Of a stretch of 64,000 nucleotides of DNA, positions 1-37,594 are shown piece after piece. This DNA comes from Elusimicrobiota bacterium (lineage in GTDB: Bacteria > Elusimicrobiota > Elusimicrobia > Elusimicrobiales > UBA9959): contig JACRER010000017.1 of the NCBI GenBank assembly GCA_016234365.1, positions 8,052 through 72,051 on the forward strand, written 5' to 3'. The notes beneath the pieces were generated by a model. That model was not told the origin of the DNA. It worked only from the letters and a program-made list of their open reading frames with translations, and ran no database searches. A program made the position numbers and the translations under genes. The number at the start of each line of letters is the position of its first letter. Position 1 is the first letter of the stretch.

Positions 1-1060
1 GGCGCCCCAGTTTTTCGGCGCCGCGCAGGCTCTTTTCAAGGCGGGAGCGCAGGCCGCTCTCTATCTCGTAGATCTTTTCCGGTTCGGCCTGCTTCAGCCC
101 CAGCATCTGGGCGCTGACGGCCTGTTTCTTGGCCGGCGAGAGCGCCAGCAGTATCTTGGAGGAAATGTGCGGTTTGCGGTCGGCCAGGTTGGCGATGATT
201 ATGGCGGCGTCCTCTTCGGGCGTCTCGGAGAGGAGTTCGGCGGCCTCGGCCGGGGGCAGTTTCTCCAGGAATTCGAAGGCCGAGCCGGCTTCCAGCATGG
301 CGCCGCCGGATGCGGCGCGGGCTTCCACGTCTATTATGTCGCCCATGCCGTCTTCCTCTGCGCCGCCCGCTCCTCCGCCGAAACCGCCGGCGCCGCCGGG
401 GCCGAGCGCGGGCGACGGGGCGTTGAGGCGGGCGTAATCCACAAAGCCGGATACCAGGCGCGAGGCCAGGATATAGCCGAGCACCAGCAGCGCGGCCAGG
501 GCCAGCGCGCCAAAGGCGGAGGCTATGAGCGCCGGGCGTATCTCCGGGGCTTCCAGGGCGCTGCGCCACCAGGGCTGCATTTCGGAGCGGGCTACGATTA
601 TGCTGTCGCCGCGGGACTCGGTGAGCCTGAGCACGTCGGAGATCATCAGTTTTATGGCGTTAACGCGGGTCTCCGGCACGGTATTGTCGAAAACGAGCGA
701 GACGCTGAGCTTCTTGACGCGGAATTCGCTGGTGCGCTGGGTCTCTTCGCGCTTCTGCTTTAGATACTCGCCGGTTTTTTCCAGGATGTTCACCGCGGCG
801 TAGCCGGGCAGCGTCAGGGTGTCTTCGGAAGGGGCGCCGGACTCCAGCTTGCTCTTGAGGACCATCTCCCCCTCTACCGTCACAAAGGAGCGGGCGCGGC
901 CGCGGCCGACGAGCTGTTCGAGGAGCCGGGAGACGTCTTCCTGCATGCGGGAGCCGAGTACGGCGGCCTGCGCGCTGGGCGAAGGCTCGGGGGCTTCCTG
1001 CGCTATGGCGGCTGCGCCACAAATAAGTATGGACGCGAAAAGGGTGATGAGTTTGTTCAT
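1..1060 (-). CDS. Partial CDS (3' end beyond the left edge). Membrane protein with a signal/lipoprotein-like N-terminus, a FliF/SctJ(YscJ)-like periplasmic ring-building region, one TM helix, a Gly-rich linker and an MgtE_N/FliG-like helical cytoplasmic domain.
   Basis: Not in the ORF track, because there is no stop codon inside the window. I checked every plus-strand triplet in this frame from 1 to 1060 and found no tta/cta/tca, so the frame is open. ATG at 1060-1058. The hand translation starts MNKLITLFASILICGAAAIAQEAPEP. It continues ...RTSEFRVKKLSVSLVFDNT...ESRGDSIIVARSEM, then the TM segment ALIASAFGALALAALLVLGYIL, then ...FLEKLPPAEAAELLSETPEEDAAIIIANLADRKPHISSKILLALSPAKKQAV. Third codon positions are GC-rich, as in neighbouring genes. 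Confidence 0.6.
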   Translation of the reverse strand, partial: MNKLITLFASILICGAAAIAQEAPEPSPSAQAAVLGSRMQEDVSRLLEQLVGRGRARSFVTVEGEMVLKSKLESGAPSEDTLTLPGYAAVNILEKTGEYLKQKREETQRTSEFRVKKLSVSLVFDNTVPETRVNAIKLMISDVLRLTESRGDSIIVARSEMQPWWRSALEAPEIRPALIASAFGALALAALLVLGYILASRLVSGFVDYARLNAPSPALGPGGAGGFGGGAGGAEEDGMGDIIDVEARAASGGAMLEAGSAFEFLEKLPPAEAAELLSETPEEDAAIIIANLADRKPHISSKILLALSPAKKQAVSAQMLGLKQAEPEKIYEIESGLRSRLEKSLRGAEKLGR

Positions 1061-1109: not shown

Positions 1110-1239
1110 GGGCCAGCCGGGGGGCTATTCCGCTCGCCAGGACTGCAGGGAACCGTTGCGCGGTTCCCCCCGCCCTTGGGAAATTGTGGGCGGGGCCCCC
1201 CTCCCCAACTGGCGCTCGGAATAGTCCCCCGGCTGGCCC
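1110..1239. repeat. 130-nt structured intergenic element: a 23-bp closing inverted repeat enclosing two GC hairpins and C/G homopolymer runs.
   Basis: 1110-1132 (GGGCCAGCCGGGGGGCTATTCCG) pairs with 1217-1239 (CGGAATAGTCCCCCGGCTGGCCC): 22 Watson-Crick pairs plus 1 G:T. Inner hairpins: 1148-1155/1161-1168 (GGGAACCG/CGGTTCCC) and 1169-1175/1188-1194 (CCCGCCC/GGGCGGG). It lies between the kinase stop (1284) and the next gene start (1060). Confidence 0.7.
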
Positions 1240-1283
1240 TCCGCTTCATGTACGCCAAAGGCAGGCCCATACCCTCTGCCTGC

Positions 1284-2597
1284 CTAAACCGGGAGCTCGA
1301 ACCAGAAGAGGGCGCCGCCGCTAGCTGCGGGGCCGCAGCCGATGCGGCCTTTGTGCAGTTCCACGATGGCTTTGGACAGCGCCAGGCCGAGCCCCGTGCC
1401 GCCGTGCCCCGGGGCGGCCGAGCCCTGGGAATACGGCGTGAACAGCTTTTCGGCCTCGCCCGGTTTAAGGCCGGGGCCGGTATCCTCCACCTCCACGCGG
1501 AACGTCCCGCCGGAGACCCGGGCGTGTACCGTCACCTTCCCTCCCGCCGGAGTGAACTTGATGGCGTTGGAGATAAGGTTCGTCAGCGCATGCATGACCA
1601 GTTCGCGGTCCAGCAGCGCCTCGGCCGGCCCAGGCGGAGTTTGGGCCTCCAGCTCGATATGTTTTTCAACGGACTTGGGCCGCAGGAAGTCCGCCGCGTC
1701 GCGCACCAGCGCCAGCGGGTCCTCGCGGGCGGGGCGCAGGTCCATCTTGCCGCGCTCTATCTTGGCCAGGTCCAGCATGGCGGTGACAAAATTGGCCAGC
1801 CGCCCGGCGTTCTCCCTTATCCGTGTGAAAACCGAGATGTCGTCGGGAGTAAAGCGGTCCCCCTCTTTTATCAGCATGGAGGCGTAGGTCTCTATGACGC
1901 CCAGAGGCGAGCGGAGTTCGTGCGTGACCGAGGCGGTGAAATTCTTTTTCATCGTCTCGAGCTCCAGCAGGTGTTCGGACATGGAGTTGAACGCCGCCGC
2001 CAGTTCCGCTACTTCGTCGGAACCGGCGTCGTCCGTCTTTGTCCCGAATTTGCCTTCCCCTACGGCCGCAGCTTCCGCGGCCAGGCGGCGAAGGCGCCGC
2101 GTCAGGCGGCGGGCCAACCCCAGCGCCAGCAGCGCCGCCACCCCGGTGGCGGCAAGGAAAGCCGCCGTCAGGTCGCGCCAGATACCGGCCAGCGCCTGCC
2201 GCCGTTCACCGGAAAGGGCTTCCTGCGAATACTGCAGCTGCGCGGAGAATCTTTTGCCCTTGAGTTCCCTGAAGGCCGGCGGGGCCGCCCCGCCGGAGAG
2301 GCGCTTGCCGTGGACCTTTACCGGCTGCATGCCCCGGCCGATGTCCAGCCGGCAGGAATTTATTTCAGGCCGGGAATTGCACAGGCCGGTGAGATAGTCC
2401 ACCGCCATCAGCGGGTCGCTGGCCAGCTCGGCTTCCCCCAGCATGGCGGTTACCGACTGCTCCAGCGCCTGCAGCCGGGCTTCCTGGGCCTGTATGATGG
2501 TACGTTTCTGGAAGCTGAAGAAGATGCCGCTCAGCAACAAAGCCGCGGCCATGGCCGCGGCCATGAGGGCCGCGCTGAATTTGTAGAAAAGGTTCAT
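1284..2597 (-). CDS. Sensor histidine kinase (two TM helices, periplasmic loop, HAMP, HisKA, HATPase_c).
   Basis: H-box SVTHELRSPLGVIE. N/G boxes NLISNAIKFTP, EDTGPGL and GTGLGLALSKAIVELHKG. HAMP-like segment after the second TM helix. No response regulator in the window. Confidence 0.93.
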   Translation of the reverse strand: MNLFYKFSAALMAAAMAAALLLSGIFFSFQKRTIIQAQEARLQALEQSVTAMLGEAELASDPLMAVDYLTGLCNSRPEINSCRLDIGRGMQPVKVHGKRLSGGAAPPAFRELKGKRFSAQLQYSQEALSGERRQALAGIWRDLTAAFLAATGVAALLALGLARRLTRRLRRLAAEAAAVGEGKFGTKTDDAGSDEVAELAAAFNSMSEHLLELETMKKNFTASVTHELRSPLGVIETYASMLIKEGDRFTPDDISVFTRIRENAGRLANFVTAMLDLAKIERGKMDLRPAREDPLALVRDAADFLRPKSVEKHIELEAQTPPGPAEALLDRELVMHALTNLISNAIKFTPAGGKVTVHARVSGGTFRVEVEDTGPGLKPGEAEKLFTPYSQGSAAPGHGGTGLGLALSKAIVELHKGRIGCGPAASGGALFWFELPV

Positions 2598-2626
2598 ACC
2601 GGCCGTTGTCGCCCGCCCCTCCCGGT

Positions 2627-4597
2627 TTACCGCGACAGCCTGATGATGCGTTCCAGCGCCTTCTTGGCCTGGCTGTTCTGCGGGTCCAGCGTAAGTATCT
2701 TGCGGAAGGAGTCCGCCGCCTTGCCGTACTCGCCCTTGGCGTAGTAGTCCGCGCCCTGCTGATAGAGCTTTTCTATCTCGCGGGCGTCCTTTTCGGCCTT
2801 GGTCTCCTCTTTTTCTTCCACGCCGGGGATGGCCGCGCCGTTGACCGGCGGCTGCCAGGTGGAAGCCTTACCCTGCTTCAGGCGGGCCTCGTCTATCATC
2901 TTGCCCAGCTTGGCCTTCTCCAGGGGGTCGCTCTCCAGTTTTGAGGCGCGCTCCCAGTCATAGGCGGCGCGCGCGTAGCTGCCCAGCATGTAGTTGCAGG
3001 AGCCGCTCTTCTTGAGGCCCAGCAGTTCGGTGGGCTCCAGCTCCAGCATTTCGTCGAGCTTGCGCAGCGCCTCGGAATAGCGTTTCTTGGTATAGAGGTC
3101 GTCGGATTCGGTCAGCTTGAACTCGGCCCAGCCGCGGCTGAAATCGGCCGGTACGCGGTCGGGCGTGACCCGGGTGATCTCGCCTACGCGGTCGAGAAAG
3201 CCCGAGAGCGCGGAATCCTGCTGGTTGAGGCTCTGCGCGTAAGCCAGCTGCTTCATGGCGCGCAGGTCCGAGCCGTTGAGGAAGTCGCGCACGCCGCCGC
3301 TGAGCAGCTGCTCCCAGCGGTTCTTCTGGCGGCCCTCGACGGCCAGGGACGGCCAGAAGGCCGCTACCGTGGAGAGGCGTTTGGTCAGCCCGACCACCGT
3401 GGCGTCGGGCAGCAGTTCGTTGGCGCGCTCCAGGAGCAGTTTGTTGGCCGCGTAGAAGTTCTCAACCTTTATCAGTTCCTTGATGTCGGCCAGGCGCGGG
3501 TCGTTGAGGCTGGCGGTCTCGCGCGGGCTCTTGTAGTCTTTGGCGTCCTGGAGGCGCTTGTACTGTTCAAGGAGCTCGGCCTCGGCTATCTCGGTCTTCG
3601 TGGCCGAGCCAAAATGGTAGGTAAGCGCGACCTTGTGGTTGCCGGCCGTTTCTTTTACGGTGCCGATGGGCAGCGAGAAGCCGTAGTCGAGCTGGATCTT
3701 CTGGATCTTGTAGGAGAGGCCGGCGGTGGCCTGCTTGAATTCCCGGTCCCCGGCGCCCAGCGAGGCCCGCACGCCTACGTCGCCTTTGTCCAGGCTCGGG
3801 AATGTTTTTTCCGCCGCGAAAATGAACTGTTTATCCGACTTGCCGTCGGGGCCTTTCTGCAGGCGCGCCTCGCCCGAGAGTACCAGCCAGAGGGCTTTGT
3901 AGGAGGCGCCAAGGCGCGTCTTCATGGGGACCTTGTCCTTGTCGCCGCTGCTGAACGCCACATTGGCCTGCATGGCGTTGAGGATGGCCAGGCCGAAGGT
4001 CCAGCGTTTGGTGAAACGGTAGAGGGCGCCCAGGTCCGCGTCCAGGGCCGCGCGTGAGTTGGCGCCGGCCAGCACGGGGTCCGTATTGCCGTTCTGCATC
4101 AGGTTGTTCTCTACGGAGTTGTAGGTCTCGTCCAGGCGCATAAAGCCGTGCGTCAGATACTTCAGCGAACCGCCCACGGAGAATTTTTCATACCGCGAGC
4201 GCGGCTCGAAGCGGTAGCCCCAGCCCACCTGCGCCGTTTTCTCGTAATAGACCCCGGAGAGAGAGAACTGCTGGTAGAGCCCCGAGAGGGTGCCGCCGCG
4301 CCCGTTCGACAAGGGCGCCGCGAAGGCGGCGGCGCTGAGGCCCAGGTTGGAGCCGTCGCTGAGGCCGCTGTAGAATATCGCGTGGGAGGCCATGGCCTTG
4401 GGGCGTTCCACGTTGGAGAGGCCCGCGGGGTTGTAATAGGCGGAAGAGATATCGTCGGCGACGGCGGTAAAGGCGTCGCCCATGCCGGGCCCCCTGGCCC
4501 CGAAGCCGAGGTCCTCGAAAGCCGCCCGCGCGGGCGCCGCCGCCAGCAGCAGGGTTGCGGCGGCAAGGGTTTTGCGGGTCCGGGCGTAGGCGTTCAT
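2627..4597 (-). CDS. Outer-membrane beta-barrel (PorV/PorP/FadL-like) fused to a C-terminal TPR-rich domain of about 320 aa.
   Basis: Signal peptide ...LLLAAAPARA. N-terminal motif GMGDAFTAVADDISSAYYNPAGL, typical of PorV/PorQ/PorP-type barrels. Alternating beta-strand pattern ending ...NHKVALTYHFG. The rest is helical TPR-like repeats (YQQGADYYAKGEYGKAADSFRKILTLDPQN). Confidence 0.75.
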   Translation of the reverse strand: MNAYARTRKTLAAATLLLAAAPARAAFEDLGFGARGPGMGDAFTAVADDISSAYYNPAGLSNVERPKAMASHAIFYSGLSDGSNLGLSAAAFAAPLSNGRGGTLSGLYQQFSLSGVYYEKTAQVGWGYRFEPRSRYEKFSVGGSLKYLTHGFMRLDETYNSVENNLMQNGNTDPVLAGANSRAALDADLGALYRFTKRWTFGLAILNAMQANVAFSSGDKDKVPMKTRLGASYKALWLVLSGEARLQKGPDGKSDKQFIFAAEKTFPSLDKGDVGVRASLGAGDREFKQATAGLSYKIQKIQLDYGFSLPIGTVKETAGNHKVALTYHFGSATKTEIAEAELLEQYKRLQDAKDYKSPRETASLNDPRLADIKELIKVENFYAANKLLLERANELLPDATVVGLTKRLSTVAAFWPSLAVEGRQKNRWEQLLSGGVRDFLNGSDLRAMKQLAYAQSLNQQDSALSGFLDRVGEITRVTPDRVPADFSRGWAEFKLTESDDLYTKKRYSEALRKLDEMLELEPTELLGLKKSGSCNYMLGSYARAAYDWERASKLESDPLEKAKLGKMIDEARLKQGKASTWQPPVNGAAIPGVEEKEETKAEKDAREIEKLYQQGADYYAKGEYGKAADSFRKILTLDPQNSQAKKALERIIRLSR

Positions 4598-4599
4598 AA

Positions 4600-4998
4600 T
4601 TATCTTATTACTGTAATCGTTCCCTTATAGACCTTGGTCTCAACGCGTACCTGGTAGAGGTACACGCCCCCGGCCGCGCGTCCGCCGGAATTGGGGTTCC
4701 ACTCGAGATCGTAATAAGCCCCGGATACGTTATCCGTTACCGGCGGCGCCCCGTTGGAGCGCTGCTTAAGGCGCATATTGGAGACCTCGCGGCCGGAGAC
4801 GTCGAAGATCTTTGCTTCTATGGCCGCGTCGCGAGGGTTATAGCAGCGGAAGATGAAAATGTCGTTGCGCCCGTCACCGTTGGGCGTGACCATGCGCGTC
4901 ATGGCCACGGACTGGCCCAGCGCCGACGGGGATGACGCGGCCCTGATCGGCGCCAGGAGCGCCGCGGCCGCCAGCAAAATGGCAAATGCCCGGTTCAT
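4600..4998 (-). CDS. Small secreted protein consisting essentially of a CHU_C / gliding-motility-associated (T9SS type-B-like) C-terminal domain.
   Basis: Start trimmed from TTG 5022 to ATG 4998, giving signal peptide MNRAFAILLAAAALLAPIRAAS. Motifs VTPNGDGRNDIF ... EWNPNSGG ... GGVYLYQVRVETKVYKGTITVIR match the TPNGDGxND / WDG / GxYxY / LiR pattern I recall for PF13585/TIGR04131. Confidence 0.75.
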   Translation of the reverse strand: MNRAFAILLAAAALLAPIRAASSPSALGQSVAMTRMVTPNGDGRNDIFIFRCYNPRDAAIEAKIFDVSGREVSNMRLKQRSNGAPPVTDNVSGAYYDLEWNPNSGGRAAGGVYLYQVRVETKVYKGTITVIR

Positions 4999-5066
4999 AT
5001 ACAGGGTAATTCTACTTTTCAATTGTGACTATTTTATTGCGTAAATGTGGATTTTACGGCGGGAAA

Positions 5067-6737
5067 ATGCAACCTGTCCGTAATAATTCTGTCGCACGCC
5101 GCGGTTATAATTATATCGTGACCATAAAGAGCGAAGCGCGGTGCCTTTTACTGCTCGCGGCGGCCCTGTTGCCCGCGGCGCCGCTTTTTGCCGCCCGGAT
5201 GGAGTCCGCCAGTTTCCGGGACGCCAACGGCATCTACGGCTTCGGCGGAGCTTCCTCCCTCTCCTCCAACTTCGCGCAGAACGGCAACGTGCAGGAACTG
5301 GCCGTCTCCACTCAGACCTCCGCCAGCTTTTCTCACCGGACGGCCAAACTCGCTTTTTTCCCCCAGCCCGCTCCGGTCGGGGACATGCAGGTGGTGGCGG
5401 TATCGAGCCACTCCATAAAGGTGACCTGGAAGGCCCCCGCGGCGGACGTTTCGCGCGGCGCGGGCGCCGCGGAATTTTACATCCTGCGCTACACCACCGC
5501 CGGCTTCCTCTCTTCCGACGGGGCGTTTTACGCCGCCTCCACTTACCCCCAAGACTGGACCCCGCTTGCCGCAGGTTCCGAGGAGACGCAGATAATAGAG
5601 GGCTTTAACCCCGGCACCACCTACTACTTCAACCTTCAATCCATGAACCTGCACCGCCTCTACTCGGAGCTTTCCAACCCGGCCGCGGCTTTCGCGCTGG
5701 TGCCGCTCCCCCCCATGAATTTTAAGATAGTCCGCGCCCCGGGAGCCGCCACCATGACCTGGATCCCGCCGGCCGGCTACCAGAACCGCATCGCTTTCAA
5801 CGACCGCTTCGCCCCCTCCTACCCGTATGAGGTCAAGACCTACCAGGTCTACCGCGCCACGGCCCCTGCCGACGCCGAGTGGCAGTTCATCGCCGAAGTC
5901 TCCTCCAGCGTCTTCACCTGGACCGACAGCGTCGCCGACGACGAGAATTATTACTACCACGCCCGCGCGGTGAACCAGGCAGGTATTTCGCTGCCCTCCT
6001 ACGCCCGCAACAGCCTCTCCGGCGACCTCTACTTCCTGGCTCCTGACAACCAGAGCATCCTCCAGGTGCCGGCCGACGGCATCGGCGATTTCTTCTCGGA
6101 GACGGCGGACCCGATGGATTCCTACAACGTGGAGATCACCACTTACCCCGAGGACCTGGCCGGGCGCGTGGTGAAATCCGTAGGCTTCCGCGCCTACAAG
6201 GGCGGGCTCCAGGCCGACGACAGCTTCCGCCTTACCAAGAACGGCGTGCTCAAACTCTTCTACCGCAAGTCGGGGTCGCAGATACTCCCCTCCGCGCAGA
6301 CCGACTCCAAGGCGGTCAGCATGTACTTCCATAACGGGTCGCGCTGGCTGCAGATGTACGGCCGCGTGAACGACTCGGAACGCAGCGTGCAGCTGGAGAC
6401 CACCCTGCTGGGCCGCTACCAGCTGCGCACCACCGAGCGCAGCGGCGGCTTTGCGGCCGATCGCGCCGGCCTTACCAACAGGCTGATAACCCCGAACGGG
6501 GATAACAAAAATGATACGATGGTCTTTATTTTCGACAATCCGCAGGATAAGGACGTGAAGGGCAAGATCTACGACCTGCGCGGAGCGCTGGTAGCGCAGA
6601 TGGTTGCGGGCCCCGTAGGCAACTCGCTGCTGTGGGACGCCAAGTCCGGCGGGCAGGTGGTGCCGGGCGGCGTCTATATCTACCAGATCGAGGCGCAGGG
6701 TACGGTTTATAACGGCACCGTGGCGGTGATCCGCTAG
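5067..6737 (+). CDS. Secreted protein with two fibronectin type III domains, a central beta-rich region and a CHU_C / T9SS type-B-like C-terminal domain.
   Basis: The track ORF starts at GTG 5025 inside an AT-rich divergent spacer. ATG 5067 or GTG 5118 is more plausible; the latter gives MTIKSEARCLLLLAAALLPAAPLFAA. FN3-like segment SIKVTWKAPAAD...YILRYTT...PGTTYYFNLQS. C-terminus LITPNGDNKNDTMVFIF...LLWDAKSGGQVVPGGVYIYQIEAQGTVYNGTVAVIR. Confidence 0.8.
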   Translation: MQPVRNNSVARRGYNYIVTIKSEARCLLLLAAALLPAAPLFAARMESASFRDANGIYGFGGASSLSSNFAQNGNVQELAVSTQTSASFSHRTAKLAFFPQPAPVGDMQVVAVSSHSIKVTWKAPAADVSRGAGAAEFYILRYTTAGFLSSDGAFYAASTYPQDWTPLAAGSEETQIIEGFNPGTTYYFNLQSMNLHRLYSELSNPAAAFALVPLPPMNFKIVRAPGAATMTWIPPAGYQNRIAFNDRFAPSYPYEVKTYQVYRATAPADAEWQFIAEVSSSVFTWTDSVADDENYYYHARAVNQAGISLPSYARNSLSGDLYFLAPDNQSILQVPADGIGDFFSETADPMDSYNVEITTYPEDLAGRVVKSVGFRAYKGGLQADDSFRLTKNGVLKLFYRKSGSQILPSAQTDSKAVSMYFHNGSRWLQMYGRVNDSERSVQLETTLLGRYQLRTTERSGGFAADRAGLTNRLITPNGDNKNDTMVFIFDNPQDKDVKGKIYDLRGALVAQMVAGPVGNSLLWDAKSGGQVVPGGVYIYQIEAQGTVYNGTVAVIR

Positions 6738-6752
6738 TTTTCCGGAGGAACT

Positions 6753-9700
6753 ATGACGAAGGCATCCAAAGAAAAATCCCCTTTCAGGTCGGCCGCGCTC
6801 CTGGCGTGGCTGCTGCTGCTCTGCCAGGCACCGGCCTGGGCCGTTATAAAGCAGACCATCAATTACCAGGGATTTTTGCTGAGCAAGGTCTCCAACCTCC
6901 CCGTGGAGGTCCCGCAGGACATAACCTTCATAATCTATTCCGCGGCCTCCGGCGGCAGCGTCCAGTTCTCGGAGGCCCGCTGCAACGTGCCGGTCACCAA
7001 GGGGCGCTACGACGTGGAAATAGGTTCCATGACGGCCGGCGGCATCCCCGGGGACGTGTTCATGAACAGCCAGAACCTCTGGCTGGAGATCCAGATAGAC
7101 CCGGACAACGATTGTACCGGCACCTATGAGGCCCTTACCCCGCGTATCCGCCTGCAGGCTTCCCCGTACGCATTCAGCTCGCTCTACGCTTCCACCGCGT
7201 CCGCGGCCACTCCGGTCTTCAACGCCGACACCATAGGCGCACTGCCTACCACGGGGAACGGCGCCATCACTATTTCCACCAACCTGTTCGTGCAGGGCGG
7301 CATCTCGGTGGGTAGCATCTCGCCCGGGCAGAAGCTGTCCGTGGCCGGCATGGTGGAAAGCAAAGGCGTTTTCCCGGCCTGTACCCTGGACGGCACCTGC
7401 GGCTTTAAATTCCCCGACGGCTCCATCCAGACCGAGGCCGCCGCCAACACGATGTGGAAGCCCAGCGGCCCCCACATCTATTCCATAAATCCAGGCAACG
7501 TCGGCATAGGCGAGAACCTTACCAACCCGCTGGCGCGCCTGCATATCTCGACGGCGGCCGGCGACACCGGCGACGTGCTGCTGGTAACTACCGGCACCGC
7601 CAGGCTTTTCAGCGTAAATGGCATCGGCCAGGTGCATGGCGGGGTTTTTTACGGGGACGGCTCCGCCCTGGCCGGAGTGGTGGTTTCCAGCGGCGGTTCT
7701 ATGACCGGCCCGCTGTCCCTGATGAACGGCTCTTCGCTTACCGTCACCTCCCCGCTCGGCGTAAGCGCTTATAAGGTTAAATTCCGCGACAATGTGGAGA
7801 TGAGTTCCGCCTCGGCGGCTAACAACGGCGGTATCTACATCAGCACCCATGTGCGCTTGATGCCGGGGGCCGTGCTTTACGGCGACGGCGCGGGCCTTTC
7901 CAACGTGGTGACGCTGGACGGTACCAAGGTGTCTACCAGCGGCGCCACCATGTCCGGGCCCCTGACGCTCGGTTTCAACGTCGCCACGCTGGCGGGCAGT
8001 TCGCTTACCGTCACCGGCGAAACCTGGCTTAAAGGCAACACCGTCCTCGGGACAGGCAACCTGGCCAGGCTGAGCGTGGGGACCAGCATAATAGCGGCCT
8101 CCAGCGTGACCGCCTCCCTGATAAGCGGCACCCAGGGTAATTTCACGTCAAACGTCACCGCGTCCACAGGCACCTTCTGGGGCTACGCCGGGCCCGACGC
8201 GGCTAATAGCTACAGCGTCAACACCGCCAGCGGCATCTTTGTCGCGCTCGGCAAGGTGAAGGCGCCGTACTTCGAAGGCAACGGCGCCGGGCTGAGCAAC
8301 GTTTCCGGCACGGACGCCACCAGGGTACTGAAAGCCGGCGACACCATGACCGGCAACCTTACCATTACCCCGTCCAGCGTCACCATAGTCGGCATGGGCG
8401 CGGAGGCTTACGCGCTGACCGTCTCCTCGGCGCTGAGCGTGAACAAGTACGGGTTGTCCGTAAGCACCATGGGCCGGGTGGGCATACAGGTAAGCGCCCT
8501 TGTGGCCCCGCTGACGGTCTACAAGCAGATGGTCCTTACCAACGACAATGAATCCGTCTCTACCAGCCTGCGCCTGCAGTCCGGAGGTCTTTCCGGTTAC
8601 GTTTCCTGGGACGACACCGCCCTTGGAGCGAGCCTCGGGGCCATGGGCTACCGGGCCGGCACGCGGGATTTCGTCTTTAACGCGGCCGGGGCCGATACGG
8701 CCAGCGGCACGGAGGTGTTGCGTATCAGCAACTCCTTATTCGACGCTACCGGCGCCACCTGGAAGTTCGGTATAGGTATAACACCTACGGAGAAGTTCCA
8801 TGTGGGGTCCAATATGCTGGTGAGCACTGCGGCTGTCAGCCCTATACTGTATATAAGCACCACTACGGGGCTTATAGGGGTGGGGTCCGCCGCTCCCGAC
8901 CATAAACTCCACGTTGCCGGCGGGATAATGGCGACTTCCTCCATAACCGCGCAGGGCGGCTTCTTTGGAGACGGTTCCAACATTACCAATATTTCCGCCG
9001 GCGGCCTGCCCGGGCAGATAGTGATCTCTTCCATAACCGCCAGGCTGGACAGCACTTACGCGGGCGTAGTGATAACTTCCGATACCTATGTGATCGGTAA
9101 ACTGGCGGTTGGAGAGATCTTCAACGCCGCCACCCCCACCCACCTGCGCGGCGAAGTGACGCTGGACCAGAAGGACGCCGAGGGTTTCACTAACCTGAAC
9201 TTTACGCTGCACAATGGCGGCCCTGCCTACATAAAGTGGGGCGAGGGCGCCATGGCCAACAAGGTTTCCCTGGGGTCTCCCGCCAACCTGCGCGACCTGG
9301 TAATGAACATCAATACCACTAACGACGAGGTATTCCGTATAAAGGGCAACTCTTCCGGAGGCGGCGGCGCCGGCTGGAAATTCGGCATAGGTACGGCCTC
9401 TCCCCTGCTGTCGTTCCATGTCGCATCGGATGTTTTTATCGGCACCGCGGCCAACCGGCCGGTGCTTACCGTTTCCACCTCTACCGCCTACCTGGGCATC
9501 AGCACCGGCAGCGCCAAGGAAGGTCTGCACGTGGCCTCCAGCCTGCTGGTGGGCGGCACGCGCGCCTCCTCGGCGCTTTACGTCAGTACCACCAGCGGTT
9601 ACACCGGCGTAGGCACCGGCAATCCCCGCGCGCTGCTTGAGGTAGGCGACGGCAATATACTGGCCGCCGGCACCTACAGCGGCGCGGCGTCGCTGCCCAT

Positions 9701-10442
9701 GGCCGGCGCCGGGACCCGGTTCATGTGGATGCCGACAGCCGGCGCGATCCGGGCCGGCAGCGTTATCGCCGCGGAATGGGACGTGATAGGCAACTATTCC
9801 ACGGCGTTCGGTTACCGCAACAGCGCTACTAACGACGCGGGCGTGGTGAGCGGCGGCTATAATAACGCCAATGACGGGCGCTACGCGGTTATCGCCGGCG
9901 GCATAAATAACGTCAACCAGGGCTTCCGTTCCTCTATAGGCGGCGGTGACAATAATTACGTCTATGGCGGTAACTCTGTGGTCCCGAACGGTGGCTGGAA
10001 CACCGTTTTCAGCTCTTATTCCTTTGTTGGCGGGTTTAATACTTACCTGACCAGCGACGCGAAAGGCACTTTTGCGTGGGGCTACGACGATGTGAACCCC
10101 TCAGGTACGTTCAACACCTTCCAGGTGACGGAGCCGCACGTGTTCCTTGTGGACCCGGCTAATATCAAGCAGTACAAGGTCGGTGTCCGTACCGCTTCCC
10201 CTAAAGCGGCGCTGGACATCAACGGCGACGCCCAGTTCGGGGCTGGAGTTACCAAGTCCACGGCCACGGCGGAAGGTTACTTCGTGCCGCGCGCCATGAC
10301 CATAGCCGAACTGCAGGCCGCCACGCCCTCGCACCTGGGAGCCGTGGTCTACAACTCCGACATCGCCAATATCTGCTTCTCTACCGGCACCGCGAAGCCG
10401 GGGCAGTGGGCGATAGCGGGGACCAAGGCCAACTGCTATTGA
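6753..10442 (+). CDS. 1229-aa secreted tail-fibre-like / adhesin-like repeat protein with a YadA-head-like beta-roll segment.
   Basis: GGAGG Shine-Dalgarno sequence upstream. Signal peptide ...LLLCQAPAWA. N-terminal INYQGFLL...LWLEIQI...LTPRIRLQASPYAF module. Seven copies of a G[IV]G-x4-6-[LF]H[VI] motif (GNVGIGENLTNPLARLHIS, WKFGIGITPTEKFHVGS, GLIGVGSAAPDHKLHVAG, WKFGIGTASPLLSFHVAS and others). Four [YF]xG[DN]G(S/A)xL(S/T)N[VI] motifs. Gly/Asn-rich repeats NYSTAFGYRNSATNDAGVVSGGYNNANDGRYAVIAGGINNVN. Confidence 0.85.
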   Translation: MTKASKEKSPFRSAALLAWLLLLCQAPAWAVIKQTINYQGFLLSKVSNLPVEVPQDITFIIYSAASGGSVQFSEARCNVPVTKGRYDVEIGSMTAGGIPGDVFMNSQNLWLEIQIDPDNDCTGTYEALTPRIRLQASPYAFSSLYASTASAATPVFNADTIGALPTTGNGAITISTNLFVQGGISVGSISPGQKLSVAGMVESKGVFPACTLDGTCGFKFPDGSIQTEAAANTMWKPSGPHIYSINPGNVGIGENLTNPLARLHISTAAGDTGDVLLVTTGTARLFSVNGIGQVHGGVFYGDGSALAGVVVSSGGSMTGPLSLMNGSSLTVTSPLGVSAYKVKFRDNVEMSSASAANNGGIYISTHVRLMPGAVLYGDGAGLSNVVTLDGTKVSTSGATMSGPLTLGFNVATLAGSSLTVTGETWLKGNTVLGTGNLARLSVGTSIIAASSVTASLISGTQGNFTSNVTASTGTFWGYAGPDAANSYSVNTASGIFVALGKVKAPYFEGNGAGLSNVSGTDATRVLKAGDTMTGNLTITPSSVTIVGMGAEAYALTVSSALSVNKYGLSVSTMGRVGIQVSALVAPLTVYKQMVLTNDNESVSTSLRLQSGGLSGYVSWDDTALGASLGAMGYRAGTRDFVFNAAGADTASGTEVLRISNSLFDATGATWKFGIGITPTEKFHVGSNMLVSTAAVSPILYISTTTGLIGVGSAAPDHKLHVAGGIMATSSITAQGGFFGDGSNITNISAGGLPGQIVISSITARLDSTYAGVVITSDTYVIGKLAVGEIFNAATPTHLRGEVTLDQKDAEGFTNLNFTLHNGGPAYIKWGEGAMANKVSLGSPANLRDLVMNINTTNDEVFRIKGNSSGGGGAGWKFGIGTASPLLSFHVASDVFIGTAANRPVLTVSTSTAYLGISTGSAKEGLHVASSLLVGGTRASSALYVSTTSGYTGVGTGNPRALLEVGDGNILAAGTYSGAASLPMAGAGTRFMWMPTAGAIRAGSVIAAEWDVIGNYSTAFGYRNSATNDAGVVSGGYNNANDGRYAVIAGGINNVNQGFRSSIGGGDNNYVYGGNSVVPNGGWNTVFSSYSFVGGFNTYLTSDAKGTFAWGYDDVNPSGTFNTFQVTEPHVFLVDPANIKQYKVGVRTASPKAALDINGDAQFGAGVTKSTATAEGYFVPRAMTIAELQAATPSHLGAVVYNSDIANICFSTGTAKPGQWAIAGTKANCY

Positions 10443-10461
10443 TGTAGTATAATATCCCTGT

Positions 10462-10573
10462 AGTTCTTCAGGGCGGGGCGTAATTCCCCACCGGCGGTAA
10501 AGCCCGCAAGCTCTCACGAGCAGATCCGGTGAAACTCCGGGGCCGACGGTAAAGTCCGGATGAAAGAAGAACT
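10462..10573 (+). promoter_or_regulatory. FMN riboswitch (RFN element) aptamer.
   Basis: AGTTCTTCAGGGCGGGGCGTAATTCCCCACCGGCGGTAAAGCCCGCAAGC...GATCCGGTGAAACTCCGGGGCCGACGGTAAAGTCCGGATGAAAGAAGAACT matches the conserved RFN core. P1 is AGTTCTTC/GAAGAACT. It lies directly upstream of ribBA. Confidence 0.93.
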
Positions 10574-10612
10574 TGCATAACGGCAAAGGCGCACGCCTTA
10601 AGCCTTTATATC

Positions 10613-10643: not shown

Positions 10644-11849
10644 ATGGCTAAAAAAATATTCTCGCCGGTTGAAGAGATAATCGCGGACATAAAGCGCGGG
10701 CGCATGGTAGTGATAACCGACGACGCCGGCCGCGAGAACGAGGGCGACCTGCTGATGGCGGGGCGCGCCGTCACCGCGGAAAAGATCAACTTCATGGCCC
10801 GCCACGGCCGCGGCCTCATCTGCGCCCCGCTTACGGCGGAGCGCGCCGCCGCGCTGGACCTGGGCCAGATGGAACGCGAGAACAAAGACCCGTTCCGTAC
10901 CAACTGGCTTATCTCCGTGGACGCGGCCAAAGGCGTGTCCACCGGGATCTCCGCCTTGGACAGGGCGAAGACCATAAAGGTTCTTTCCTCCCCCGGCTCC
11001 CTTCCGCATAACCTGACCCGGCCCGGGCACATCTTCCCGCTGAAAGCCCGCCCCGGCGGCGTGCTGGCGCGCGCGGGGCACACCGAGGCCTGCACGGACC
11101 TGGTGCGCCTGGCGGGCGCGGGGGCCGCCGGCGTGATCTGCGAGATCATGAACCCTGACGGCACTATGGCCCGCCTCCCCCAGCTTGCGCGCTTCGCGGC
11201 CAAGTATAAACTTAAGATGGGAACCATCGCGGACCTTATAGCCTACCGCCGCCGCAAGGAGTCCCTGGTGGAGCGCGCGTCCTCCTCCGTGCTGCCTACG
11301 GAATTCGGACTTTTCAACATCGCAATTTATAAGGAAAGGCTGACCGGCCTTGAGCACGCGGCGCTGACGCTGGGCAAAGTAGGCGATCCGGCGTTGGTGC
11401 GCGTTCATTCGGAGTGCCTTACCGGCGACGTCTTCGGCTCCTGCCGGTGCGACTGCGGCCCGCAGCTGCATGCCGCGATGCGGCTGATAGCCAAAGAAGG
11501 AGCCGGCGCCATCCTCTACATGCGCCAGGAGGGCCGCGGCATCGGCCTGGCCAATAAGATCAAAGCCTACAGTTTGCAGGACAAGGGCTACGATACTGTT
11601 ACCGCCAACGAGGCGCTGGGCTTTCCGGCGGACCTGCGGGACTACGGCATAGGCGCGCAGATCCTCTGCGACCTGGGCCTGCGCCGTCTGCGCCTGATCA
11701 CCAACAACCCCAAAAAACTGGCCGGCCTGAGCGGTTACGGCCTGGAGATCGCCGGCCGCGTACCGCTGCTGATAAAGCCTAACACCCACAACGAGCGTTA
11801 TTTGCGGACCAAGAAAAGAAAATTAGGGCATTTGCTCAAGAGCGTATAG
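10644..11849 (+). CDS. ribBA: Bifunctional 3,4-dihydroxy-2-butanone-4-phosphate synthase / GTP cyclohydrolase II.
   Basis: 401 aa. DHBP synthase motifs ([18 protein letters not shown]) followed by GCH-II motifs ([32 protein letters not shown]). Confidence 0.96.
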
Positions 11850-11857
11850 GAGGAAGC

Positions 11858-12316
11858 ATGAAAACCATAGAAGGCGGCCTGAAAGCCGATAAGCTGAAGT
11901 TCGCGATAGTAGTTTCCCGGTTCAATGATTTTATCACCGGGCGCCTGCTCGACGGAGCCGTGGACGCGCTGAAGCGCCACGGGGCCGACGAGAAGGACCT
12001 GACCGTGGTGAAGACCCCCGGGGCCTACGAGATCCCGGTGGTGTGCGAGAAGCTGGCCGCGGGCAAGTACGACGCCATCATCTGCCTGGGCGCGGTAATA
12101 AAGGGTGAAACGCCCCATTTCGACTTCGTAGCGCAGGAAACTGCCAAGGGCATAGCCTCGGTCTCGATGAAACATAAGGTGCCGGTGGCCTTTGGCGTGA
12201 TCACGGCCGAGAATTTGGAGCAGGCCATAGAGCGCGCCGGCGTAAAGCACGGCAACAAGGGCGCGGAAGCCGCCGTATCCGCCATAGAGATGGCGAACCT
12301 GTTCAAGAACCTGTAA
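11858..12316 (+). CDS. ribH: 6,7-dimethyl-8-ribityllumazine synthase.
   Basis: 152 aa. [13 protein letters not shown]...[11 protein letters not shown]...[15 protein letters not shown], a typical RibH sequence. Confidence 0.95.
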
Positions 12317-13404
12317 TGGACAGGCACGCGGGGTTCATGGCGCGCGCCATAGAAGCGGCGCGGCGCGGGCGCTTCGGGGCGCATCCTAACCCTATGGTCG
12401 GGGCCGTAATTGTAAAGAATGGCCGGGTCATAGGAGAGGGCGCGCATCTGCGCTGGGGCGGCCCGCATGCCGAGATAAACGCCCTGCGTTCCTGCCGCGC
12501 CAGTCCAGCCGGGGCGGACCTCTATGTAACCCTGGAGCCCTGTTCCACCTGGGGCAAGACCCCGCCCTGCACCGAAGCTGTTATAGGGGCTCACATAAGG
12601 AATATATATATAGGGGCCCTGGACCCGAACCCGGCCAATGCCAGCAAAGCATTGCCTATACTGCGCAAAGCCGGGATAACGGTAAAGACCGGAGTGCTGA
12701 AGAAAGAGTGCGAAGCGCTGAACCCTGCCTTCAATAAGTTCATACGCACCGGCAACCCTTATGTGACGGTAAAAATAGCGCAGAGCCTGGACGGGCGCAT
12801 AGCGGACGCCGCCGGCCGCTCGCGCTGGATCTCCTCCCCCCAATCCCGCAAGGAAACCCATAAGTTGAGGGCAGAGGCGGACGCGGTGCTTGCCGGCATA
12901 GGCACCGTGCTGGCCGACGACCCGCTCTTGAACGTGCGCGGTGTTAAAGTGTCGCGCCAGCCCTGGGTGGTGGCGCTGGATTCTTCCTTCCGGGTTCCAA
13001 GGCGCGCGCAGATATTTAAGAACGAACGCGTGGTGATAGCCACTACGCGCAAGGCTTCCGTTACGGCCATGAAGCGCTTTCCTCACGGCGCAAAAATACT
13101 GGTCCTCCCGTCGGAGAAAGGCCGGGTCTCGCTGAAAGCGCTCCTCAAGGCGCTGGGCAAGCTCGGCATAGGGCATGTGCTGGTGGAAGGCGGCGGGCGG
13201 GTGGCCGGCTCGTTCATCAGCGAGGGCCTGGCGGACAGGTTCGTCTGTTTTGTGGCGCCCATGCTGATAGGCGGCACGAAGTCTAAAAATTCGCTGGTCT
13301 GGCCGGACGCGGTTAATGCCGCCCGCAAAGATTTGGGCCTGAGGCCGCGGCTGGCCGACGTTACTAAAGTCGGGCCCGACCTGATGCTGGATATGAGGTT
13401 CTGA
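12316..13404 (+). CDS. ribD: Bifunctional diaminohydroxyphosphoribosylaminopyrimidine deaminase / 5-amino-6-(5-phosphoribosylamino)uracil reductase.
   Basis: CMP/dCMP deaminase Zn motif HAEINAL...PCSTWGKTPPC, then the reductase domain (VTVKIAQSLDGRIA). TAATG overlap with ribH. Confidence 0.94.
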   Translation: MDRHAGFMARAIEAARRGRFGAHPNPMVGAVIVKNGRVIGEGAHLRWGGPHAEINALRSCRASPAGADLYVTLEPCSTWGKTPPCTEAVIGAHIRNIYIGALDPNPANASKALPILRKAGITVKTGVLKKECEALNPAFNKFIRTGNPYVTVKIAQSLDGRIADAAGRSRWISSPQSRKETHKLRAEADAVLAGIGTVLADDPLLNVRGVKVSRQPWVVALDSSFRVPRRAQIFKNERVVIATTRKASVTAMKRFPHGAKILVLPSEKGRVSLKALLKALGKLGIGHVLVEGGGRVAGSFISEGLADRFVCFVAPMLIGGTKSKNSLVWPDAVNAARKDLGLRPRLADVTKVGPDLMLDMRF

Positions 13405-14006
13405 TGTTTACCGGGATAATCGAAACGGTTGAAAAGGTGCGCTCGGTGTCCGGCAAGGCGCTGGAGGTCTTTGTCCCCGGGGATTGGGCTTTGTCCGACG
13501 GGGAAAGCGTGGCCGTGAACGGGGCCTGCCTGACGGTGACGGCGCATAAGCCGGGCCTCGCGGTCTTTGCCGTGAGCCCCGAGACTTTTTCCCGGACCAC
13601 GCTGGGCCGGCTGAAGGCCGGCGCGGCGGTCAATCTGGAGCGGGCGCTTGCCGTGGGCGCGCGCCTGGGCGGCCACTTTGTGACCGGCCATATAGACGGC
13701 ACTGCCCGCTTGATCTCTGTCAGGGACGACGGGAACAGCAAAATACTAGAGGTGGCTAATTCGGCCGGCGCGGTTATGGTGGAGAAAGGTTCCGTCGCTC
13801 TAGACGGGATAAGCCTAACCGTTTATGACGTCGGGCCCTCTTCCTTCAAGGCCGCCGTGATCCCCCACACCTGGGCCAATACCGCGCTTAAGCATCTTAA
13901 GCCCGGCGGCCTCCTTAACATCGAATACGACATACTCGGCAAATACGCCGCGGCCAAAACCCCGGGCCTCACCCGGGACTTCCTCAAAGACAATGGTTTT
14001 CTGTAA
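13404..14006 (+). CDS. ribE: Riboflavin synthase alpha chain.
   Basis: MFTGIIE start. Duplicated lumazine-binding repeats (GESVAVNGACLTV / GSVALDGISLTV). TGATG overlap with ribD. Confidence 0.95.
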   Translation: MFTGIIETVEKVRSVSGKALEVFVPGDWALSDGESVAVNGACLTVTAHKPGLAVFAVSPETFSRTTLGRLKAGAAVNLERALAVGARLGGHFVTGHIDGTARLISVRDDGNSKILEVANSAGAVMVEKGSVALDGISLTVYDVGPSSFKAAVIPHTWANTALKHLKPGGLLNIEYDILGKYAAAKTPGLTRDFLKDNGFL

Positions 14007-14214: not shown

Positions 14215-15624
14215 TCAGAAGAACCTTGCGGCTTGGGCGGCCAGGGCCAGGAGCGGCCGGGAGAAGACGCCGGCGAGCAGCACGCCCGCGGCCATGAGGA
14301 AGATGACGCCTTCGGCGAGGCCGGGCGCTTCATAGACGTGTTCGCCGGCGGCGGGCTTCATGTACATAGCCACGGTAACCTTCAGATAGTAGTACATGCT
14401 CACCGCGCTCATCAGCACGCCTATTACTACCAGCCCGGTATTGCCGGAGTTCACCGCCCCGGCGAAAGCGTAAAATTTGGCGAAGAACCCCGCCAGCGGC
14501 GGCACGCCCGCCAGCGAGAACATGAAAGCCGCCATCGCGCCGGCGAGCCATGGTCGCGCTTTCGCCAGCCCCGCCAGGTCCTCTATCTGCGGCCCCTTCT
14601 CCCCCTTCTCAAGCACCGCCGCCACGGAGAACGCTCCAATGGTGGCCATAGCGTAGACGGGCAGGTAATAGAGCACCGCCTGCGCCCCTTGCTGCCCTCC
14701 GAAGAAGGCTATGGCCATGTAGCCGGCGTGCGCTACGCTGGAATAGGCCAGCAGGCGCTTAAGCCCGCTCTGCCCCAGCGCCATCAGGTTGGCGGTTATG
14801 GCGGTAATAGCGGCCAGCCACCAGAAGATGCGGTGCACGGGCCCGCCGTCGAAAATATCGAACAGGCGCCACAGCACTATCACGCCGCCGGCCTTTACCG
14901 CCGCGCCCATGAAGGCCGCCACCGGCGTGGGGGCGCCCTCGTAGGCGTCCGGCACCCACATATGGAACGGCACCAGCGCCGTCTTGAAAGCGAAGCCGGA
15001 GATGACCAGCAGGAAGCCGGCCAGCGCCAGGGGCGTGGCCGTTCCGCCCTTAAGGGCCGCGAACGTCAGGGCCGGGTACAGGGCGTTGAGTATGGCGACG
15101 CCCATTATGGTCATGCCGGAGCCGAAAGCGCCCAGCATGAAATACTTGTAGGCGGCTTCCAGCCCGGGCTTGGACCGTTTAACCCCGGCCAGCGCGTAGA
15201 CAGGCAGGCTCAGCAGTTCCAGCGCGATGAAGGCCGTGAACAGGTCTCCCGCCGCTACCAGCGTCATCAGGCCGATGGAAGCCATGAAGAGCAGGAAATA
15301 ATATTCGCCCGTGCTCTCTTCGGGCGCGGCCGGCCTGGCTATGGAGATCAGCGCGGTCAGGCCCAGCACGGCCAGGACGAACGCCCACAGGTAGACGGAC
15401 AGCGGGCTAAGCAGCAGCGCGCCGTTGAAAAGCGAGAGCTGTACTTCGGGCGCGCGCCGCAGGAAGGTGAGCGCCACCAGCACCGCGCCCACCGCTATCA
15501 GGCCGGGCGTGCCGCGCAGGGAGCGCAAGAATAGAGGCAGCAGCAGGCAGGCCGCGGCGGCCAGCAGCAGCAGCAGCGGGCCCGCCAGGGCGCCGGCGGC
15601 AAAGCTTATCGGGTCCGGCGTCAT
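14215..15624 (-). CDS. nuoN: NADH-quinone oxidoreductase subunit N.
   Basis: 469-aa polytopic antiporter-like subunit. Last gene in the nuoA-N order. 4-nt overlap with nuoM. Confidence 0.93.
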   Translation of the reverse strand: MTPDPISFAAGALAGPLLLLLAAAACLLLPLFLRSLRGTPGLIAVGAVLVALTFLRRAPEVQLSLFNGALLLSPLSVYLWAFVLAVLGLTALISIARPAAPEESTGEYYFLLFMASIGLMTLVAAGDLFTAFIALELLSLPVYALAGVKRSKPGLEAAYKYFMLGAFGSGMTIMGVAILNALYPALTFAALKGGTATPLALAGFLLVISGFAFKTALVPFHMWVPDAYEGAPTPVAAFMGAAVKAGGVIVLWRLFDIFDGGPVHRIFWWLAAITAITANLMALGQSGLKRLLAYSSVAHAGYMAIAFFGGQQGAQAVLYYLPVYAMATIGAFSVAAVLEKGEKGPQIEDLAGLAKARPWLAGAMAAFMFSLAGVPPLAGFFAKFYAFAGAVNSGNTGLVVIGVLMSAVSMYYYLKVTVAMYMKPAAGEHVYEAPGLAEGVIFLMAAGVLLAGVFSRPLLALAAQAARFF

Positions 15625-17165: not shown

Positions 17166-19057
<1,892 letters not shown>

Positions 19058-19058
<1 letters not shown>

Positions 19059-19348
19059 CAGCCTTTCAGCTCCTTGATATTGCCCGGGTCCAGCGTACGG
19101 AACGCCGAGGCGAGCGAAAGTATCAGCGCCAGGCCCACGCCGGCCTCGGCGGCGGCTATGGCGAAGAGCATTACCGCGTAGCCTTGAGAAACCGCGCCGG
19201 GGCCCAGCGCCACCAGCGCCAGGTTGGCCGCGTTAAGCATCAGCTCCAAAAACATCAGCATACGCACCAGACTGCCGCAGGTCAGAAAGCCCGCCGCGGC
19301 GGCGGCGAACAGGATAAAGCTGATACCGGCCAGATCGAAGTGCGTCAT
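19058..19348 (-). CDS. nuoK: NADH-quinone oxidoreductase subunit K.
   Basis: Trimmed to ATG 19348 (96 aa, MTHFDLAGISFILF...); the upstream part of the track ORF is Arg/Pro junk. ATGA overlap with the nuoJ stop. Conserved Glu in LELMLNAANL and AAAEAGVGLA. Confidence 0.9.
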
Positions 19349-21511: not shown

Positions 21512-21515
21512 CTCG

Positions 21516-24247: not shown

Positions 24248-24265
24248 TGCTATGCAGGTGCCGTA

Positions 24266-24766: not shown

Positions 24767-25975
<1,209 letters not shown>

Positions 25976-25983
<8 letters not shown>

Positions 25984-37576: not shown

Positions 37577-37594
37577 CATAAATTTAGACGCAGC

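Follow-up and report, generated by a model that had tools for sequence, protein, structure and literature searches.

A conserved Elusimicrobiota locus with type-B-like C-terminal domains, a barrel-TPR fusion, a sensor kinase and a MAT-like fibre

What would a carrier and cargo pair of the kind found in type IX secretion systems (T9SS) be doing in a phylum for which no such system has been described? The question is raised by a locus at positions 1284-10442 of a 64,000-nucleotide (nt) stretch of DNA, hereafter the window, whose host is an Elusimicrobiota metagenome-assembled genome (MAG) lineage and not a member of Bacteroidota. Two gene sets diverge there: leftward, the genes for a protein made of a single C-terminal domain (CTD), for a beta-barrel fused to a tetratricopeptide repeat (TPR) arm and for a histidine kinase; rightward, the genes for an FN3-CTD protein and a large fibre protein. 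An earlier note, made from the sequence alone, had called the CTDs and the barrel T9SS-like and the combination new. Our own reading, held with slightly more confidence than doubt, is that the locus is a dedicated Elusimicrobiota carrier/cargo module that displays a long MAT-like adhesive fibre and reports on it.

Proteins of the divergent locus

The CTD-only protein (132 amino acids (aa), minus strand; open reading frame (ORF) 4600-5022, likely start ATG 4998, giving 4600-4998) is a signal peptide followed by one type-B-like C-terminal beta-sandwich domain. The FN3-CTD protein (556 aa, plus strand; ORF 5025-6737, likely start ATG 5067, giving 5067-6737) ends in a type-B-like CTD encoded at nt 6477-6734 of the same strand. 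In both proteins the CTD runs to the stop codon and the N-terminus is hydrophobic and signal-peptide-like. Both C-termini scored 30.4 bits against the Pfam family CHU_C (PF13585), thus passing its gathering score (cut-off 27), and matched the NCBIfam type-B model TIGR04131 with 20.5 bits (CTD-only) and 27.9 bits (FN3-CTD), short of the curated NCBI cut-off of 35. In an alignment of 24 orthologous CTDs (A4), all 24 matched TIGR04131 (best E=8e-10), 23 also matched the type-A model TIGR04183, and TPN.D..ND, W, G.Y.Y and G were invariant. In the six-frame translation of the 64 kb, the motifs TPNGDxxND and GGVYxYQ occur exactly twice, both times at this locus. Judged by these profiles, both CTDs are members of the T9SS CTD superfamily, nearest to type B, as the earlier note had proposed. 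Its FN3-FN3-CTD architecture survived in part: one FN3 domain passes the Pfam threshold (33 bits), whereas the second is recognisable by eye only.

The barrel-TPR protein (656 aa; 2627-4597, minus strand) is predicted to join, in aa 1-330 (3608-4597, minus strand), a signal peptide, a conserved plug-like segment (GMGDAF..DD..YYNPAGL) and a 14-strand outer-membrane barrel to a C-terminal, probably periplasmic TPR arm in aa 334-655 (2627-3598, minus strand), within which aa 578-600 form a disordered linker. In Pfam, PorP_SprF (PF11751) matched aa 54-327 with 37.2 bits (cut-off 22.3) and TPR_2 scored 37.7 bits, TPR matches being also obtained in a profile search of the PDB. Among the NCBIfam models, PorV_fam (PorV/PorQ, NF033709) scored 53.6 bits, under its cut-off of 90, TIGR03519 (PorP family) 31 bits, under its cut-off of 90.55, and the 'PorV2' model 39.5 bits on the N-terminal segment of the barrel; in the same Pfam and NCBIfam scans the FadL model reached 18.8 bits and Toluene_X matched weakly. 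When a profile of 43 barrel-TPR orthologues (A1) was run against PDB sequences, PorV (6h3i_F, E=3e-4) was the only barrel match. The AlphaFold2 (AF2) model, with a mean pLDDT of 82.8 over the whole 656 aa, has 14 strands in aa 67-328 and an all-helical TPR arm in aa 334-655. At the level of the superfamily, the PorV/PorP-like barrel with about 320 aa of fused TPR that the earlier note had described is borne out. Foldseek searches with the barrel model returned FadL (E=1e-7), TodX and OmpG, all 14-strand barrels, together with porins; PorV and PorP were absent from the top 50, a result that gives the fold class only and does not separate PorP from PorV. On the sequence and model evidence, the barrel is a member of the FadL/PorV/PorQ/PorP superfamily and is not assignable to one subfamily. 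A short SprF-type C-tail with Cys-x-Cys is not present, nor is there a Cys in the invariant or near-invariant columns of A1. Several barrel orthologues have already been named 'type IX secretion system membrane protein PorP/SprF' by NCBI's pipeline.

The kinase (437 aa; 1284-2597, minus strand) has a first transmembrane (TM) helix, a periplasmic domain of ~115 aa, a second TM helix, and HAMP, HisKA and HATPase_c domains (50, 44.7 and 94.3 bits in Pfam, respectively); its hydrophobic segments are aa 7-30 and 142-163.

The fibre protein (1229 aa; 6753-10442, plus strand) is predicted to be secreted and has a long, repetitive body rich in Gly, Ser and Thr and a conserved C-terminal tip with 2 Cys. 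The giant fibre ORF of the earlier note was confirmed, but the note had missed a MAT-like domain at its N-terminus (nt 6813-7202, plus strand, about aa 21-150). Scanned at full length, the fibre gave a weak Pfam match to Chlorovi_GP_rpt (chlorovirus glycoprotein repeat). When the N-termini of 12 orthologues and paralogues were scanned alone, each of them matched Bdello_MAT_N (NF053851) and no other NCBIfam family (best E=9.8e-10); the N-terminus from the window matched with E=5.5e-6 and 26.3 bits, under the cut-off of 60. This domain (INYQGFL...PR.RLQASPYAF) can be aligned with its counterpart in the paralogous fibre described below. In the MAT fibres of Bdellovibrio, the N-terminal domain is invariant and should sit beside the cell surface, and the surface element that it is presumed to bind has not yet been identified (PMC10769870). 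Further along, aa 1021-1095 (nt 9813-10037, plus strand) consist of repeats like those of YadA/UspA1 heads (UspA1 head 3pr7, E=2e-4). The fibre orthologues are mosaic, from 833 to 1249 aa long, with conserved N- and C-termini and a variable middle.

The five ORFs, the gaps between them, the AT-rich divergent spacer and the GGAGG site had all been correctly placed in the earlier note. The gaps are 29 nt (kinase/barrel), 2 nt (barrel/CTD-only) and 15 nt (FN3-CTD/fibre), and the fibre ATG at 6753 is preceded by GGAGG at a distance of 8 nt. The starts at ATG 4998 and ATG 5067 agree with public gene calls on a 99% identical contig; from its sequence, the spacer that they delimit (4999-5066) is the presumed promoter region of both transcription units, and a promoter-like site is predicted in this region at 5080-5051 on the minus strand. 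All five genes have a GC content at third codon positions (GC3) of 0.74-0.87, comparable to that of the housekeeping genes of the window. The barrel gene is 2 nt from the CTD-only gene, and cargo and barrel are neighbours as in the SprB/SprF pair; this Bacteroidota precedent, to which the note had appealed, holds as an analogy but not as a context, the host being an Elusimicrobiota.

Conservation of the gene set and its leftward extension

A scan of one genome per species yielded 22 loci with barrel-TPR proteins 52-88% identical, and all of those with a named taxon are MAGs of Elusimicrobia, Elusimicrobiales or Elusimicrobiaceae. In every sufficiently long contig of this set the order is the rib operon, the fibre and FN3-CTD genes, then the divergent CTD-only, barrel-TPR and kinase genes; the gene-order comparison that the earlier note had suggested thus found the neighbourhood kept in the related loci whose contigs reach the flanking genes. 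Wherever a contig runs past the barrel gene, the kinase gene comes next, often with a 4-nt overlap, and in near and distant relatives alike the CTD-only gene is the immediate upstream neighbour of the barrel gene. In the protein database, 225 full-length relatives of the barrel-TPR protein were found down to 35% identity, and every taxon-named one comes from Elusimicrobiota. At 36-38% identity (loci L023, L025, L026 and L028), a small CHU_C protein, the barrel-TPR protein and a HAMP kinase are still encoded together; in such distant relatives 4-nt overlaps among the CTD-only, barrel and kinase genes are frequent and the flanking genes differ. In L027 the set is complete, FN3 protein and a fibre of 1092 aa included, and lies between RNase III/Mut7-C on the fibre side and purB/purA on the other, whereas in the window the rib operon lies beside the fibre gene. 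The GC content is 27% in L027, about 63% in the window (61-67% along its length) and 70% in L023. Kept despite changing flanks and this span of 27-70% GC, the linkage of CTD protein, barrel-TPR and kinase is, judged from gene order, functional and not just inherited synteny. In one of these distant loci, L028, a 98-aa GIY-YIG nuclease gene (3229-3525) lies between the barrel-TPR and kinase genes, which suggests the insertion of a small mobile element into the operon.

A query with the barrel alone revealed a second barrel-TPR family in the same phylum (535-575 aa, 41-47% identical), and in one case both families lie on a single 269-kb contig. Its genes form a paralogous module (L029 10001-17336 and L030 7618-15905) composed of a protein with FN3 and CHU_C domains (765-791 aa), the barrel-TPR, a HAMP kinase and a large fibre-like protein (960-1407 aa), with an OmpR-type regulator and a receiver immediately upstream. 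The large protein matches Bdello_MAT_N with 31.6 bits and has a fibrinogen-like (GGGWT) tip. FliF/FliG or MotAB genes were not found near the module in L029 or L030. From this composition, the recurrent core consists of the CTD cargo, the barrel-TPR, the kinase and the fibre, to which the family of the window adds the CTD-only protein and the motor-like genes.

These motor-like genes lie on the left. The gene after the kinase (1060..1, minus strand) runs off the window start, which leaves the N-terminal 353 aa of a protein of ~478 aa: a signal peptide, a periplasmic FliF-RBM3-like domain, a single TM helix at aa 174-208, a Gly-rich linker and the beginning of a FliG middle domain. In full-length orthologues of ~478 aa, the signal peptide precedes a ~150-aa periplasmic domain, the single TM helix, the Gly-rich linker, FliG_M and FliG_C; the one at L009:13775-15211 scores 53.1 bits for FliG_C (PF01706, cut-off 23.3) and 30.5 bits for FliG_M (PF14841, cut-off 25). 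The fusion (P0121) matches Thermotoga maritima FliG (1lkv, E=7e-14). In Foldseek searches with its AF2 model (pLDDT 67.8), the cytoplasmic half resembles the FliG middle and C-terminal domains (E about 4e-8) and the periplasmic half the RBM3/S-ring of FliF (7bk0_B, E=5e-4; 6sd1_A, TMt 0.56). FliG_N is not present in the fusion, the N-terminal half of which is taken up by the signal peptide, the RBM3-like domain and the TM helix. All 116 homologues found have the same architecture or are fragments, and every one with a named organism is from Elusimicrobia. The charged residues of the FliG-like torque helix are partly conserved, and we counted this neither for nor against a motor function. In our literature searches, no FliF-FliG fusion with a non-flagellar role was found.

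Everything beyond window position 1 rests on relatives of 74-88% identity; the near-identical contigs L032 and L033 end before the left edge. In the 88% identical relatives and in the distant L027, the gene after the fusion encodes a coiled-coil protein that ends in a HATPase_c domain; then come, on the opposite strand, an OmpR-type regulator and two single-domain receivers, and after these a dCache-PAS kinase, MotB and MotA. The MotB protein has the plug and an OmpA-like domain and keeps the proton-binding Asp in YGDMMS. In total, the full cluster comprises 13 genes, with up to three kinases and three regulators. In a tblastn matrix, 17 loci that reach past the kinase have the FliF/FliG-like gene behind it (the match in L025 being partial), and the 15 loci with DNA far enough downstream have MotAB within ~9 kb. 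The gap between kinase and fusion genes is 20-43 nt in L023 and L026 and 223 nt in the window, where it holds a predicted promoter-like site. The earlier note had called the kinase an orphan; this appearance is produced by the left edge of the window, which interrupts the leftward genes, the 88% identical relatives carrying three response-regulator genes 4-6 kb past it. Likewise, the self-contained cargo/shuttle/sensor unit that the note had envisaged is upheld in that the cargo, barrel-TPR and kinase recur in two paralogous families, but what the window shows is the visible half of the 13-gene cluster with the FliF/FliG-like fusion and MotAB.

The coiled-coil gene next to the fusion (L009 15250-17190; L027 11416-13377, with a 4-nt overlap with the fusion) encodes 650-880 aa, and the protein ends in HATPase_c in some lineages, with no recognisable HisKA.

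A display and sensing model and competing explanations

Several characterised systems offer points of comparison. As in SprB/SprF of Flavobacterium johnsoniae, a cargo of the TIGR04131/CHU_C type is encoded beside its own barrel of the PorP/SprF superfamily, a long surface fibre or adhesin is present, the barrel is predicted to link to an inner partner through a C-terminal periplasmic extension, and a proton-motive-force motor of the MotAB/ExbBD superfamily belongs to the system, although at our locus the motor genes are only nearby and their coupling is no more than possible. The SprF periplasmic tail couples SprF to an internal partner (PMC12635249). The differences are equally clear: besides the phylum, the extension is here a 320-aa TPR without conserved Cys instead of a short tail with a CxC motif, the CTD is carried by a separate FN3 protein and not by the fibre, a sensor kinase is always encoded alongside, the neighbours are MotAB and a FliF/FliG-like protein instead of GldLM/GldKN, and no SprA was found. 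In Porphyromonas gingivalis, type-B CTD proteins such as PG1035 remain on their own PorP-like barrel, and PorP, with its type-B protein bound outside, also binds the TPR-containing PorE in the periplasm (PMC9143113); PorA, which is small and consists of hardly more than a CTD, is the ligand of the sensor kinase PorY, which its CTD binds in the periplasm (PMC12152298). At our locus, by contrast, the TPR is fused to the barrel and the kinase is encoded in the same operon, and a PorK/N ring and an OmpA-like PorE domain are both lacking; the PorA CTD is moreover of type A. The fibre shares with the Bdellovibrio MAT proteins a homologous N-terminal domain, a length of ~1000 aa or more, mosaic variable distal parts and, in the paralogue, a fibrinogen-like tip; it differs from them in phylum and in its scores (26-32 bits against a cut-off of 60), and its trimeric state is presumed. 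No anchor or linked barrel has been reported for the Bdellovibrio MAT fibres.

By analogy with SprB/SprF and PG1035/PorP/PorE, we infer the following model. The CTD of the FN3 protein would dock on its own barrel and stay bound there, and the FN3 protein would grip the trimeric fibre by its N-terminal domain, at the end nearest the cell. In cis, the fused TPR arm would take the part that the PorE TPR or the SprF C-tail plays in trans, and connect the barrel to periplasmic partners. The nearest of these would be the periplasmic domain of the kinase encoded alongside; the RBM3-like ring protein is a possible further one. From the kinase, the signal would pass to the regulators whose genes lie farther to the left. 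The CTD-only protein might cap unoccupied barrels or, as a PorA-like periplasmic ligand of the kinase, report to it whether barrels are occupied.

Several points weigh against this model. The matches to T9SS-family hidden Markov models (HMMs) are all marginal, TIGR04131, TIGR03519 and PorV_fam staying below the curated NCBI cut-offs for the proteins of the window. The fibre has no CTD, and for both its way out of the cell and its connection with the FN3 protein we could only guess from the order of the genes. Folded proteins are, to our knowledge, too large to pass a 14-strand barrel by itself, and neither the window genes scanned nor the locus flanks contained a translocon. Finally, in the distant L023 and L026 the triad lacks the FN3-CTD and fibre genes as neighbours, and the fibre is therefore possibly an accessory and not a core part.

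A translocon encoded elsewhere in the genome would make the locus an ordinary T9SS cargo/carrier pair, that is a type-B cargo operon with a TPR fusion served by a canonical system (SprA/Sov, PorK/L/M/N). We regard this as unlikely, though the strongest of the alternatives to display and sensing. It would account for the CTD and PorP_SprF matches, and a related genome does have a bona fide PorV/PorQ barrel beside proteins with Por_Secre_tail or PorU-CTD-like ends. It is countered by the absence of any core T9SS gene from the 20 other window genes scanned (among them the rib genes, as annotated publicly on L032, the nuo operon, plsX, tig, lon and ackA), in keeping with the earlier note, and from the ~20-kb flanks of 30 loci. 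Reviews confine T9SS to Bacteroidota or the FCB superphylum (PMC7463736, PMC11205867), the literature searched contained no paper connecting Elusimicrobia with T9SS, and the groundwater Elusimicrobia paper makes no mention of motility or secretion. A second possibility is that nothing is displayed by the CTD proteins at all: they would stay periplasmic as PorA-like kinase ligands, the barrel-TPR would be a scaffold or envelope-stress sensor, and the fibre would merely be a regulated target gene. The activation of PorY by the PorA CTD from the periplasm (PMC12152298) and the kinase invariably encoded alongside, with up to three kinases and three regulators in the full cluster, speak for it. We nevertheless find it rather improbable: it leaves unexplained why a MAT-like fibre with a conserved cell-proximal domain occurs in two independent paralogous modules, and the type-B CTDs studied to date end on the surface, bound to a barrel (PMC9143113).

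Two further explanations fare worse. In structure the barrel comes closest to FadL and TodX, and together with the weak Toluene_X match this would fit a FadL-type channel for the uptake of a hydrophobic substrate, with the CTD and FN3 proteins as substrate-binding accessories. PorV too has the FadL fold, and the HMM scores prefer PorV_fam (53.6) and PorP_SprF (37.2) over FadL (18.8 bits); the cluster moreover has no catabolic or transport genes, its neighbours being CTD proteins, the fibre, kinases and motor parts, which makes uptake very improbable. A remnant of a prophage or tailocin tail-fibre cassette is hardly credible: phage-fibre-like repeats with the weak Chlorovi_GP_rpt match and a weak minor-tail PHROG match of the FN3 protein (E=9e-4) are set against a fibre without a PHROG match, a locus without other phage genes, host-like GC3, a fixed chromosomal place in species-level relatives and conservation from 27 to 70% GC. 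The PHROGs scan of the fibre, FN3-CTD and CTD-only proteins was uninformative, and a phage origin was dropped.

The PorV/PorQ barrel of the related genome lies in locus L031 (JAQTOU010000001.1, the same genome as L010; 3745-20927) and scores 150 bits for NF033709 (cut-off 90). Its neighbours are a 1198-aa FN3 protein with a PorU-CTD-like end, a FecR-like protein, a 3240-aa protein without a family match and a 1531-aa Kelch protein with Por_Secre_tail. The giants beside this barrel have type-A-like CTDs. From this arrangement of CTD-type proteins beside a barrel, pairs of CTD and barrel are a general theme, and CTD-bearing giants beside PorV/PorP-type barrels seem to be general in the lineage.

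The display and sensing model makes no use of the motor-like genes beyond the ring protein as a possible partner, and a more far-reaching proposal is a mechanical drive of barrel and fibre by MotAB together with the FliF/FliG-like ring. The MotAB stator would turn or push an inner-membrane ring of the FliF-RBM3/TM/FliG fusion, the periplasmic face of this ring would engage the TPR arm of the PorP-like barrel, and the CTD-anchored MAT-like surface fibre would thereby be moved or tensioned, with the single-domain CheY-like regulators and the three kinases in control. The likeness to the flagellar parts lies in the RBM3-like periplasmic domain, the single TM helix, the FliG middle and C-terminal domains and the presence of MotAB within ~9 kb; the difference lies in a single 478-aa fusion that lacks the RBM1/2 domains of FliF and FliG_N, and in the surroundings, no flagellar structural genes being found in any locus flank. 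We consider such a drive improbable. Were it true, free-living Elusimicrobiota would have a trans-envelope machine not described before, one end of which is seen in the window: a motor for gliding-like or grappling movement, independent of a flagellum, in which flagellar rotor and stator parts are joined with T9SS/gliding carrier parts, and the surface anchor of a MAT fibre would be identified.

Whether or not a motor is involved, the locus would provide a genomic context for the orphan motAB and fliG of non-flagellated free-living Elusimicrobiota, in one conserved cluster with a carrier and a fibre. Most free-living members of the phylum lack flagellar structural genes yet have motAB and fliG homologues, according to a preprint on magnetotactic Elusimicrobiota (bioRxiv 10.1101/2022.07.08.499144), which did not link them to the barrel/fibre cluster. 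The display and sensing model would also place the logic of a type-B CTD with a dedicated PorP-like carrier in this phylum. Its new architecture, in which the barrel carries a fused TPR and is accompanied in every case by a sensor kinase, bears on the origin of T9SS carriers and CTD signals, and the module is a candidate anchor for MAT-type fibres, a question left open by the Bdellovibrio authors. The parts themselves are of known kinds; their combination, the fusion, the phylum and the MAT and FliG/MotAB links are not described in the literature searched. To this extent the claim of novelty in the earlier note holds, with the qualification that NCBI's pipeline had already named some of the barrels.

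Other features of the window

Downstream of the locus, an FMN riboswitch (10460-10575, plus strand; 119.8 bits) begins 18 nt past the fibre stop codon; the stretch that separates the two yielded no terminator-like site. The rib operon follows (10644-14006), with ribBA-like, DMRL synthase, ribD-like and riboflavin synthase (Lum_binding) genes. Next to it is a housekeeping operon for complex I (nuo; 14215-26659, minus strand) with three Proton_antipo_M subunits, NuoJ/I/H-like and NuoG-like proteins and the 49-kDa and 30-kDa subunits.

Long spurious ORFs, typical of high-GC DNA, lie in alternative frames of or antisense to real genes at 5148-7850 (minus), 1176-2744 (plus) and 36-569 (minus), one of them being 900 aa long. 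The last was considered as a conserved small gene and rejected, as it is an alternative frame of the real FliF/FliG-like gene (1060..1, minus strand); its tblastn matches in relatives arise because the underlying DNA is conserved.

A 196-aa pentapeptide-repeat protein (28467-29057, minus strand; 83 bits) adjoins a weak CHAP-domain protein (27716-28399). Further right, tRNA-Lys(CTT) and tRNA-Leu(TAG) (37505-37780, plus strand) precede the genes for trigger factor and Lon protease (37800-42157), which have a 202-aa gene between them.

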